This document shows, piece by piece, positions 2,649 to 5,021 of a stretch of 5,623 nucleotides of DNA; the stretch's first letter is position 1; every line of letters begins with the position of its first letter. Position numbers and translations under genes: made by a program. A model generated the notes under the pieces. The model saw nothing but the letters and a program-made list of their open reading frames with translations. It ran no database searches and had not been told where the DNA came from. Source of the stretch: Escherichia coli (GTDB lineage: Bacteria > Pseudomonadota > Gammaproteobacteria > Enterobacterales > Enterobacteriaceae); assembly GCF_003334385.1 (NCBI RefSeq), contig NZ_QOWN01000080.1. One strand, written 5' to 3'.

Positions 2649-3347
2649 ATGCAGGAGATCAACGAAGAAAGCCTGAATGAGTCGGTTAAATCAGAGCAGT
2701 CACCGCGGGTGGTACTCTGGGAAATTGACCTGACGGTGCAGGGTGGTGAGCGGTATTTTTTCTGTAATGAGCTGAATGAAAAAGGGGAGCCGGTCACCTA
2801 GCAGGGGCGGAAGTACCAGGCATACCCGATTGACGGCAGCGGCTTTGAGATGAACGGGAAAGGGAGCAGTGCCCGCCCGTCACTGACGGTGTCGAATCTG
2901 TTCGGGCTGGTTACCGGGATGGCGGAGGATTTGCAGAGCCTGGTGGGGGCCACGGTGGTTCGTCGCCGGGTGTATGCGCGTTTTCTGGATGCGGTGAATT
3001 TTGTGGCAGGCAATCCGGAGGCTGACCCGGAGCAGGAGCTGACGGACCGCTGGGTGGTGGAGCAGATGTCGCAGCTCACAGCCATGACGGCCTCGTTTGT
3101 GCTGGCGACACCGACGGAGACGGACGGTGCGTTGTTTCCCGGCCGCATCATGCTGGCGAACACCTGTATGTGGACCTACCGCTCTGATGAGTGTGGTTAC
3201 ACGGGCGGGGCGGTGGCGGATGAGTTCGATAAACCCACCACCGATATCCGTAAGGACAGATGCAGCAAGTGCATGCGCGGGTGTGAACTGCGCAGGAATG
3301 TCGGCAATTTTGGCGGTTTCCTTTCCATTAATAAACTTTCGCAGTAA
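2649..3347 (+). pseudogene. L: Minor tail protein L (lambda gpL-like) interrupted by an in-frame amber codon at 2799-2801
   Basis: ATG at 2649 (MQEINEESLNE...) to TAA at 3345-3347 is 699 nt, matching the lambda L length as I recall it. One TAG at 2799-2801 splits it into 2649..2801 and the track ORF 2850..3347, but the 16 codons between the stop and the next ATG (QGRKYQAYPIDGSGFE) continue in frame and read as tail-protein sequence. The track ORF start at 2595 would span the terminator hairpin and is rejected. Confidence 0.7.
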
Positions 3348-3357
3348 ATCCCGGTTT

Positions 3358-4101
3358 ATGACACAGACTGAATCAGCGATTCTGGCGCATACCCGGCGGT
3401 GTGCGCCTGCGGAGTCGTGCGGCTTCGTGATAACCACGACGGAGGGCGAGCGGTACCTGCCCTGTGTGAATATCTCCGCAGCGCCGGAGGCGTATTTTCG
3501 TATTGCCCCGGAAGACTGGCTGCGGGCGGAGATGCAGGGTGAGATTGTGGCGCTGGTTCACAGTCATCCCGGTGGTCTGCCCTGGCTGAGTGAGGCAGAC
3601 CGGCGACTGCAGATAAAAAGTGCCCTGCCCTGGTGGCTGGTCTGCCGGGGTGACATTCACAAATTCCGCTGCGTTCCGCACCTGACCGAACGGCGCTTTG
3701 CGCACGGGGTGACGGACTGTTACACGCTGTTCCGGGATGCATACCATCTGGCAGGCATTGATATGCCGGATTTTCACCGTGAGGATGACTGGTGGTGCAA
3801 CGGTCAGAACCTTTACCTGGACAATATGGAGGCAACGGGCTTTTACCGGGTGCCCCTGTCCTCTGCACTGCCGGGCGATATCCTGCTGTGCTGCTTCGGC
3901 GCATCGGTGGCTAATCATGCCGCCATTTACTGCGGCAACGGTGAACTGCTTCACCATCTGCCTGAACAACTGAGTAAACGGGAGAGGTATTCCGAAAAAT
4001 GGCAACGACGAACGCATTCTGTCTGGCGTCACCGCCACTGGCACGCATCTGCCTTCACGGGGATTTACAACGATTTGGCCGCCGCTTCAGCCTGTATGTG
4101 A
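3358..4101 (+). CDS. K: Tail tip assembly protein K (lambda gpK-like) with JAB/MPN (JAMM) and NlpC/P60 domains
   Basis: ATG at 3358 (MTQTESAILAH...). JAMM motif HSHPGGLPWLSEAD (H-x-H-x7-S-x2-D). NlpC/P60-like Cys (GVTDCYTLF) with downstream His residues (NHAAIYCG, LLHH). The track ORF start at 3097 is an out-of-frame read-in over the L 3' end and is rejected. No obvious Shine-Dalgarno; start is 10 nt after the L stop. Confidence 0.8.
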   Translation: MTQTESAILAHTRRCAPAESCGFVITTTEGERYLPCVNISAAPEAYFRIAPEDWLRAEMQGEIVALVHSHPGGLPWLSEADRRLQIKSALPWWLVCRGDIHKFRCVPHLTERRFAHGVTDCYTLFRDAYHLAGIDMPDFHREDDWWCNGQNLYLDNMEATGFYRVPLSSALPGDILLCCFGASVANHAAIYCGNGELLHHLPEQLSKRERYSEKWQRRTHSVWRHRHWHASAFTGIYNDLAAASACM

Positions 4102-4679
4102 ACACGGCGGCGGAAGCCATCCGCGCCCTGTCGCTGCAGGTGCCGGGATTCCGCCGTCAGATGAACGAAGGCTGGTACCAGATACGCATTGCCGGTGAGG
4201 ATACGGCACCGGAGGCGGTGTATGCCCGCCTTCACGAACCACTGGGTGAGGGAACGGTTATCCATATTGTGCCGCGACTGGCCGGAGCCGGAAAGGGCGG
4301 ACTACAGATTGTGCTGGGGGCAGCTGCCATTGTGGGGTCTTTCTTCACGGCCGGAGCATCAATGGCGTTATGGGGTTCAGCCCTGGCAGCCGGTGGTTTT
4401 TCTGCCACCACGATGCTGTTTTCACTGGGTGCCAGCATGATACTGGGCGGTGTGGCCCAGATGCTGGCCCCGAAGGCAAAAACACCGGATTACCGCGCAA
4501 CGGATAACGGCAGACAGAACACGTATTTTTCCTCACTGGACAACATGATTGCCCAGGGCAACCCGATGCCGGTGCCCTACGGTGAAATGCTGGTTGGTTC
4601 ACGACGTATCTCTCAGGACATCAGCACCCGTGATGAAGGCGGAGACGGAAAGGTGGTGGTTATTGGTCGACAGGGATAA
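3999..4679 (+). CDS. I: Tail assembly protein I (lambda gpI-like)
   Basis: 226-aa ORF with RICL-GDLQRFGRR near the N-terminus and a Gly/Ala-rich hydrophobic segment followed by QNTYFSSLDNM, as I recall for lambda I. Overlaps the K 3' end by 103 nt in another frame. Confidence 0.8.
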   Translation: MATTNAFCLASPPLARICLHGDLQRFGRRFSLYVNTAAEAIRALSLQVPGFRRQMNEGWYQIRIAGEDTAPEAVYARLHEPLGEGTVIHIVPRLAGAGKGGLQIVLGAAAIVGSFFTAGASMALWGSALAAGGFSATTMLFSLGASMILGGVAQMLAPKAKTPDYRATDNGRQNTYFSSLDNMIAQGNPMPVPYGEMLVGSRRISQDISTRDEGGDGKVVVIGRQG

Positions 4680-4692
4680 AACATAAAAAAAT

Positions 4693-4717
4693 CCCGCAGT
4701 GATCGCGGAGCTGCGGG
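4693..4717 (-). terminator. Probable intrinsic terminator oriented for minus-strand transcription
   Basis: Inverted repeat CCCGCAG (4693-4699) and CTGCGGG (4711-4717). On the minus strand the stem is followed by T7 (plus-strand A-run 4685-4691). No T-run follows it on the + strand. Confidence 0.45.
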
Positions 4718-4788
4718 GACAGACAAATGAAGATTAATGTTAAGGAGTTGTTTTTGTTACTCGGGCAAAAAAACACTAACGCAGCGAA

Positions 4789-4816
4789 ATTATAAGCGCC
4801 ACAGTCAGTGTGTGAA
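4789..4816 (-). promoter_or_regulatory. Candidate sigma70 promoter on the minus strand (TTCACA-N16-TATAAT)
   Basis: Read on the minus strand: TTCACA (complement of 4811-4816), 16-nt spacer, TATAAT (complement of 4789-4794). Fires toward the minus-strand terminator at 4693-4717. Confidence 0.35.
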
Positions 4817-4890
4817 AATGTGAAGATATTCAGAATTTTTATGCCATTACCGGTTTTAACCAACAGGATTATCGGTGGGCATGAAAGAAA

Positions 4891-4918
4891 ACCCCGGTAT
4901 CTGCTGATACCGGGGTTT
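4891..4918. terminator. GC-rich hairpin with T-rich flanks on both strands; possible bidirectional terminator
   Basis: ACCCCGGTATC (4891-4901) pairs with GATACCGGGGT (4906-4916), 4-nt loop. Followed by TTCTGTTT on the + strand and by TTTCTTTCAT on the minus strand. Confidence 0.4.
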
Positions 4919-5021
4919 CTGTTTAGCATGGCAGAAATGTGTTTCATGCTTTTCGGGCGAAGGATATCCGACTTCTGTACGGAATGGCAAGTGGCGGTTA
5001 ATTTATTCAGGGGAAGGCTGT

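Follow-up and report, generated by a model that had tools for sequence, protein, structure and literature searches.

Does gene K of this Escherichia coli tail module really end within the gene that follows it, or has its C-terminus been altered? The window, by which we mean the whole 5,623-nt stretch analysed (RefSeq assembly GCF_003334385.1, contig NZ_QOWN01000080.1), carries a K reading frame that runs 103 nt into gene I. The initial annotation recognised K as a lambda-type protein and considered that it might carry a C-terminal extension or a shifted stop. Our analysis indicates that 3358-4101 is very probably an ordinary, intact K gene from the tail module of a lambda-like E. coli prophage, followed by an I gene that begins at ATG 3999 (Table 1). 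This gene structure is already known for K and involves no extension, frameshift, read-through or novel fusion.

Table 1. Features of K, I and their surroundings, with positions counted along the window.
Feature	Position	Strand	Basis or remark
Tail module in the order H, M, OmpC-type porin, L, K, I, J	H (terminal part) 128-748; M 741-1082; porin 1289-2452; L 2649-3347; K; I 3999-4679; J start ~5022	+ for K, I and porin	Comparison with E. coli 2018-166
Gene K, tail tip assembly protein, 247 aa	3358..4101	+	ORF/translation, Pfam, phrog_30, annotation of relatives
JAMM/MPN+ (Prok-JAB) metalloprotease domain, K residues 3-105	3364..3672	+	Pfam, conservation, Foldseek, match to PDB 2kks (JAB)
JAMM residues of K	E19 3412-3414; H68/H70 3559-3567; S78 3589-3591; D81 3598-3600	+	Alignment
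NlpC/P60 (C40) papain-like peptidase domain, K residues 114-224	3697..4029	+	Pfam, conservation, Foldseek
NlpC/P60 catalytic residues of K	C121 3718-3720; H187 3916-3918; H199 3952-3954	+	Conservation
C-terminal alpha-helix of K, residues 230-246, SAFTGIYNDLAAASACM	4045..4095	+	AlphaFold2, ortholog conservation
Shine-Dalgarno-like GGGAGAGG	3980..3987	+	11 nt before ATG 3999, within K codons for conserved KRERY
Gene I, tail tip assembly/plug protein, 226 aa	3999..4679	+	Pfam, PDB 8iyk, PHROGs, AlphaFold2
K/I overlap, 103 nt, I in the -1 frame relative to K	3999..4101	+	Same length in lambda; codon-phase diversity
GTG, codon 34 of I, start per PGAP/pharokka in relatives, judged not the real start	4098..4100	+	After beta1/beta2, variable codon, no Shine-Dalgarno

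The K frame extends from ATG 3358 to the TGA at 4099-4101 (247 codons) and begins 10 nt past the L stop; a mechanical list of open reading frames started it at an upstream TTG (3097), but all homologs begin at MTQTES instead. Pfam detects a Prok-JAB domain (PF14464, residues 3-105, E 3.6e-15) and an NLPC_P60 domain (PF00877, residues 114-224, E 1.1e-12), and in PHROGs K is phrog_30, "minor tail protein", aligned over residues 1-247 (E 6e-156). The JAMM signature is complete, E19 ... H68-S-H70-PGGLPWL-S78-EA-D81: its core HSHPGGLPWLSEAD (H68-x-H70-x7-S78-x2-D81) is encoded at nt 3559-3600 and Glu19 lies upstream. The papain-like residues are C121 in DCYTLF, H187 in NHAAIY, and H199/H200. In an alignment of 30 K sequences that reaches down to ~31% identity, E19, H68, H70, S78, D81, C121, H187 and H199/H200 are all invariant or nearly so. 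The Pfam matches and these conserved catalytic residues bear out the earlier proposal that JAMM and NlpC/P60 domains reside in one lambda-type K protein. AlphaFold2 models K with a mean pLDDT of 95.8 and a pTM of 0.90. Foldseek against the PDB matches the JAMM half to Pyrococcus furiosus JAMM1, AMSH, CSN5 and Rpn11, and the NlpC/P60 half to the hydrolases 4hpe and 9ubf and to MepS (8xud); the same search returned these separate domain matches only and no solved K homolog. With motif and fold both present, K is a putative zinc-dependent peptidase or isopeptidase. Against the NCBIfam model TIGR02219 ("putative phage cell wall peptidase, NlpC/P60 family") K scores 20.5 bits, below the cut-off of 81.9, and it is an NlpC/P60 protein outside that equivalog. 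K shares the traits of phrog_30-type K (TAPK) proteins, that is, both domains, a position between L and I/J, and full-length collinearity with lambda K. A length of 247 aa is the norm, found in protein clusters with thousands of members, and relatives carry the gene as 744 nt, annotated "C40 family peptidase" or "tail tip assembly protein K".

The C-terminal tail of K belongs to this common architecture. Residues 215-229 (WQRRTHSVWRHRHWH) make up the basic, His/Arg/Trp-rich segment already pointed out in the initial annotation, and the amphipathic helix that follows (residues 230-246) is predicted with block pLDDT values of 96 and 86 by AlphaFold2. Across 17 K proteins from Escherichia, Salmonella, Citrobacter and Edwardsiella (65-93% identity) the ends differ by at most 2 residues, and all share KWQRRTHSxWRHRxWxxSAFTGIYNDLxAAS, among the best conserved stretches of K. 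The motif HSxWRHxxWxxSAFTGIYNDLxAAS stays conserved and in register across orthologs of 99% to ~61% identity, and in the wider K subfamily the tail is still recognisable at ~36% identity. At the DNA level the window, lambda and two phages align collinearly through the K stop.

Beyond the lambda clade, the type of tail tracks the gene arrangement. In tailed K proteins with the pattern "...W-Q-xxx-F-T-[AG]-I-x-N-D-L", the overlap with I measures 55-64 nt, the ATG or GTG of I lying within the W-Q codons (loci L090, L091, L221, L211/212), and in the lambda clade, which has the W-Q pattern too, the overlap is 103 nt. Tailed K proteins with the pattern "H-P-...-N-D-[LF]" overlap I by only -2 to 4 nt (L092, L093, L218, L219); there, a long overlap is precluded by the I frame itself, which opens no more than 11-31 nt ahead of the K stop. 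This correspondence (55-103 nt for W-Q tails, ~0-4 nt for H-P tails) suggests that one lineage created or resolved the overlap while both peptides were kept. The ND[L/F] motif persists even in relatives that lack the overlap, and its distance to HSxWRH is equal in overlapping and non-overlapping tailed K proteins, which argues that the helix is conserved for K itself and is not merely a by-product of coding for I. A search in the non-overlapping L092 and L093 for shifted-frame similarity between the 5' region of I and the K tail found no trace of a duplication that resolved the overlap. Elsewhere, a contig of GCA_051651345.1 (L220) carries a lone K (1201-1938) with its tail intact, beside HxlR and flavodoxin-like host genes and followed by only the first ~20 codons of I; it is a decayed prophage remnant that kept K.

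Why, then, does lambda K look shorter? The database entry (UniProt TIPK_LAMBD) does count 199 aa against the 247 aa of the window protein, but the missing 48 residues are N-terminal, not C-terminal, and the shortfall stems from one G missing upstream of codon 49 in J02459/NC_001416. In NC_001416, the homolog of the window K ATG lies at 14133, reads MTQTESAILAHARRCAPAESCGFVVSTPEGERYFPCVNISGEPEA and then falls out of frame; in the alignment, lambda has GGAGGC-TATTTCC where every relative has GGAGGCGTATTTCC, which places the absent base at ~14266 (~1262 in L001). Lambda imm434, otherwise identical here, has the G and a continuous 247-aa K frame. The check for a frameshift relative to orthologs thus came out the other way round: window K contains none, and the indel is in the lambda reference. 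Among phage records, an 81-nt query over the site aligns without a gap only to J02459, NC_001416, OR474059 and OR974322, and with one extra base (G) to lambda imm21, h434 imm21, DE3, KT232076, LC730321 (48,503 bp), PV340536, HK629/630 and many others. IMG/VR and the GTDB representative genomes contain no match to a 31-mer lacking the G; the 32-mer containing it has 55 in IMG/VR and 1 in the GTDB representatives, the latter a 610-bp contig of an Ancylomarina assembly that is presumably lambda contamination. The G is also present in each of the eight longest contigs that encode exactly the 199-aa protein; since that length results there from other indels or from the choice of start, these contigs say nothing about the missing base.

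Restoring the G gives lambda a predicted K of 247 aa, and TIPK_LAMBD is, as read from these sequences, an N-terminally truncated model without Glu19. The missing base is either a sequencing error of 1982 or a mutation private to the sequenced stock; a search of the literature at hand for a published note on this indel found none. The truncation explains why a 2020 review recognises only one peptidase domain in a "199-residue" gpK (PMC7291167). The textbook 199-aa lambda K, which is still in reviews, therefore owes the absence of its first 48 residues, including the JAMM catalytic Glu, to a one-base reference discrepancy, and the 247-aa protein is the one to take for structural or functional studies of gpK.

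The other side of the junction is gene I, whose product consists of a 13-residue leader, a ubiquitin-like beta-grasp (Ubl) domain (residues 14-97), a Gly-Gly pair (100-101), a hydrophobic segment and a C-terminal plug domain. It has the Ubl domain, Gly-Gly, hydrophobic segment and plug domain of Lambda tail assembly protein I (PF06805, phrog_32/phrog_4244), with the expected ...AGAGKG-G101 boundary after the Ubl domain. The Pfam model Lambda_tail_I covers residues 15-97 of this long form. The PDB entry for lambda gpI (8iyk, E 1e-94) and phrog_4244 both align from residue 1, and the phrog_32 alignment begins at residue 13. AlphaFold2 places the Ubl fold at residues 14-95, and its first strands (beta1 14-19, beta2 29-33; pLDDT 95-97) both precede Val34.

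That K runs 103 nt into I holds if I starts at ATG 3999, and the lambda annotation has the same overlap (K 14276..14875, I 14773..15444; NC_001416). We surveyed the junction in more than 200 loci, which yielded 60 distinct junction sequences with K at 60% identity or more. An ATG stands exactly 103 nt before the K stop in 55 of the 60 and at 106 nt in 2 more (57/60 in total); of the remaining three, L208 has a shifted K stop, and L163 and L209 are frameshifted exceptions. The initial annotation had named in advance, as the mark of a normal gene structure, orthologs with the same tail and overlap, and such orthologs are what we find.

Nucleotide diversity by K codon position, computed over 116 distinct sequences anchored on the K stop, shows how the two frames share this DNA (K position 2 is I position 3, and K position 3 is I position 1). 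The K-only zone displays the usual coding periodicity (0.117, 0.025 and 0.315 at K positions 1, 2 and 3; 0.151 overall), and in the I-only zone (0.172, 0.438, 0.223; 0.277 overall) diversity peaks at the third positions of I, with 0.438. In the proximal overlap, which encodes the I leader (0.11, 0.096, 0.28; 0.162 overall), the K periodicity persists and the leader is variable at the protein level; over these first ~45 nt, constraint from the end of the P60 domain of K would dominate and leave I with a poorly conserved 13-residue leader. The distal 52 nt, where the K helix lies over beta1-beta2 of I (0.062, 0.12, 0.178), have the lowest overall diversity of the four zones (0.121), and the "silent" positions of both frames are suppressed. 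The distal ~55 nt are genuinely dual-coding, for the terminal helix of K and for beta1-beta2 of I, and both frames are constrained. The K/I junction is thus a clean example of a conserved long overlap with constraint on both frames, and anyone engineering lambda tail-tip genes should expect a "silent" change in one of the two to alter the other.

Three other readings of the locus have to be weighed against this one. An abnormal C-terminal extension of K, through a lost or shifted stop or a frameshift, would make the 103-nt overlap an artefact of this genome. Its only ground was the shorter lambda K of the 199-aa database entry. Yet lambda and window K end at the same aligned residue, their C-termini matching residue for residue, and share the 103-nt overlap; the 48-aa gap is N-terminal and due to one missing G, 247 aa is the normal length in clusters of thousands, and the tail is modelled as a confident helix. 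The alignment to lambda and 16 orthologs and the junctions surveyed in over 200 loci rule out an extension or shifted stop, which retains next to no probability. A programmed -1 ribosomal frameshift within the overlap, yielding a K-I fusion in the manner of lambda G/GT, is highly improbable as well. The frame of I is indeed -1 relative to that of K, Iyer et al. (2006; PMC1779556) cite a prophage in which TAPI and a JAB domain are fused, and a few database ORFs (P0023, P0043, P0109, P0111; 348-428 aa) join K and I domains. These ORFs fall, however, in clusters of 1-2 sequences, against thousands of separate K proteins, and probably reflect indels or assembly errors in the overlap, not natural fusions. 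No X_XXY_YYZ slippery heptamer occurs in any frame between 3900 and 4098, as a pair of the lambda G/GT type would have, and I possesses its own conserved ATG and Shine-Dalgarno-like sequence.

The remaining alternative is that I begins at GTG 4098, in a 4-nt GTGA overlap with translational coupling, so that the upstream I frame would be open without coding. GTGA stop-start overlaps are common, and overlaps of 4-8 nt occur in the non-tailed PhiBP82.1 and LL5 and also in L218. PGAP and pharokka place the start of I at the GTG on the K stop, with a 4-nt overlap and an I of 190-193 aa, in L217 (5599-6180), in L002 and L003 (4499-5080) and in most RefSeq relatives, and a 2020 review likewise takes gpI as a 190-residue protein. 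The long spacing of 11 nt between GGGAGAGG and ATG 3999 also counts against the upstream start. However, a start at 4098 would take away beta1 and beta2 of the Ubl fold, and homologous strands stand at the N-terminus of every I protein examined: all 24 aligned sequences, including those of HK97, T1-like, Burkholderia and Pseudomonas phages, have beta1 (x-[IV]-x-[LF]-x-G-x-L-xx-F-G) near the N-terminus, the distant ones beginning just 1-3 residues ahead of it. The GTG codon itself is GTA or ATA in 33 of the 116 distinct variants, and nothing resembling a Shine-Dalgarno sequence was found before it; by comparison, GAGAGG or GGAGAGG is conserved across junction variants, and the lambda imm434 annotation sets the ribosome-binding site of I at the spot equivalent to GGGAGAGG. 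The third positions of I have a diversity of 0.12 upstream of 4098 against 0.438 downstream, a drop to which K coding contributes, and the PHROG and PDB alignments to lambda gpI start at residue 1 of the long form. Upstream of ATG 3999 the I frame opens just 0-33 nt earlier in the junction variants. Lambda and Salmonella-type phages have a second I ATG (Met14, 64-nt overlap) that could serve as the start in lambda itself; this codon is CTG in 70 of 116 variants, the window among them (PPLAR vs PGMAR), where ATG 3999 is the sole start codon upstream of beta1. Taken together, codon conservation and the structural model indicate that I starts at ATG 3999 and that the long overlap is real; GTG 4098 is rejected as unlikely, with only a small probability left to it. 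Automatic pipelines that begin I at the GTG, as they often do, remove two strands of the Ubl domain.

With I starting at ATG 3999, what could the two proteins do? K would be a non-structural tail-tip assembly factor that combines a JAMM/MPN+ zinc metalloprotease, an NlpC/P60 cysteine peptidase and a short C-terminal helix, and it might act on I during tip assembly. JAMM/MPN+ deubiquitinases and desampylases act on ubiquitin-like beta-grasp domains that end in Gly-Gly. The JAB domain of K probably cuts I after the Gly-Gly that ends its Ubl domain, which would leave just the C-terminal plug portion in the virion. Release of the Ubl domain of I at its C-terminal glycine by the JAB domain of K was proposed by Iyer et al. 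(2006; PMC1779556). In lambda cryo-EM structures only gpI residues ~134-223 are seen in virions, as a trimeric plug that holds the gpH C-terminus, and gpK is not detected in virions (PMC10721106, PMC12617516). The overlap, together with the weakly placed Shine-Dalgarno sequence, may also keep I translation low and tied to that of K. It is conceivable, if doubtful, that the dual coding of the distal ~55 nt is ancient and has been maintained by selection. In that case the helix might be a functional element that docks, for example, onto the Ubl domain of I or the nascent tip, and it would be written over the beta1-beta2 hairpin of that very substrate, coupling evolution and translation of the two.

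The surroundings of K and I, which are 99.6% identical to E. coli 2018-166 across the entire window, have peculiarities of their own. Between the tail genes M and L sits an OmpC-family porin gene (387 aa, 1289-2452, + strand), which scores 496.7 bits against the NCBIfam model "porin OmpC" (cut-off 484) and is named ompC by PGAP in E. coli 2018-166. It is followed, shortly before the L start, by a strong intrinsic terminator (AGGGGCGC-ATT-GCGCCCCT plus T7, 2610-2628). The porin gene is a classic moron within the late tail operon and recalls phage-borne porins. Codon 51 of L (2649-3347; codon at 2799-2801) is TAG in the window vs TGG (Trp) in E. coli 2018-166; since this amber codon interrupts L, tail building by the prophage probably depends on suppression of that codon, and the module may make no tails at all. 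The I-J intergenic region (4680-5021) measures 342 nt vs 60 nt in lambda. On its minus strand, a promoter-like TTCACA-16-TATAAT (11/12 to consensus, 4816 to 4789) is followed by a terminator (4709 to 4693, plus T7), and a small antisense RNA of ~95 nt could run between them. Positions 4889-4918 hold a second perfect hairpin, AAACCCCGGTATC...GATACCGGGGTTT. An Rfam scan of the window gave no matches.

Lambda gpK/gpI is the closest known system: (i), the gene order L-K-I-J, the 103-nt overlap and the frame relation are the same, with ~86% (K) and 69% (I) amino-acid identity; (ii), the C-terminal length and tail motif of K are identical, and both systems have JAB and NlpC/P60 in K, and Ubl and plug in I. 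Lambda differs in its 199-aa K entry, a product of the missing G, and in keeping the Met14 ATG that the window lineage lost. HK97 gp19 and the K proteins of T1-like LL5 and Burkholderia PhiBP82.1 share JAB plus NlpC/P60 and the position in the tail-tip module, but they end ~20 residues earlier, without the C-terminal helix, and adjoin I with 4-8-nt overlaps or with morons in between. The functional model adopted here for K and I comes from the F-pyocin pair PA0639 (gpK homolog) and PA0640 (gpI homolog, the tip plug), a non-structural factor and a plug that lacks its N-terminal domain in the mature particle; F-pyocin entries 25vf and 9l9p of the PDB match I. In that system tips do not form without the gpK homolog; the gpI homolog retains its N-terminal domain in stalled precursor tips, which fail to join the tube, and loses it ahead of that attachment. 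The F-pyocin sequences are distant, however. Outside phages, K resembles Rpn11, CSN5, AMSH and P. furiosus JAMM1 in its E-x(n)-H-x-H-x7-S-x2-D motif and fold. It differs from the JAMM deubiquitinases in that its JAMM domain is fused to NlpC/P60 in a phage morphogenesis protein, and in that its putative substrate, I, is a linear Ubl fusion and not an isopeptide conjugate.
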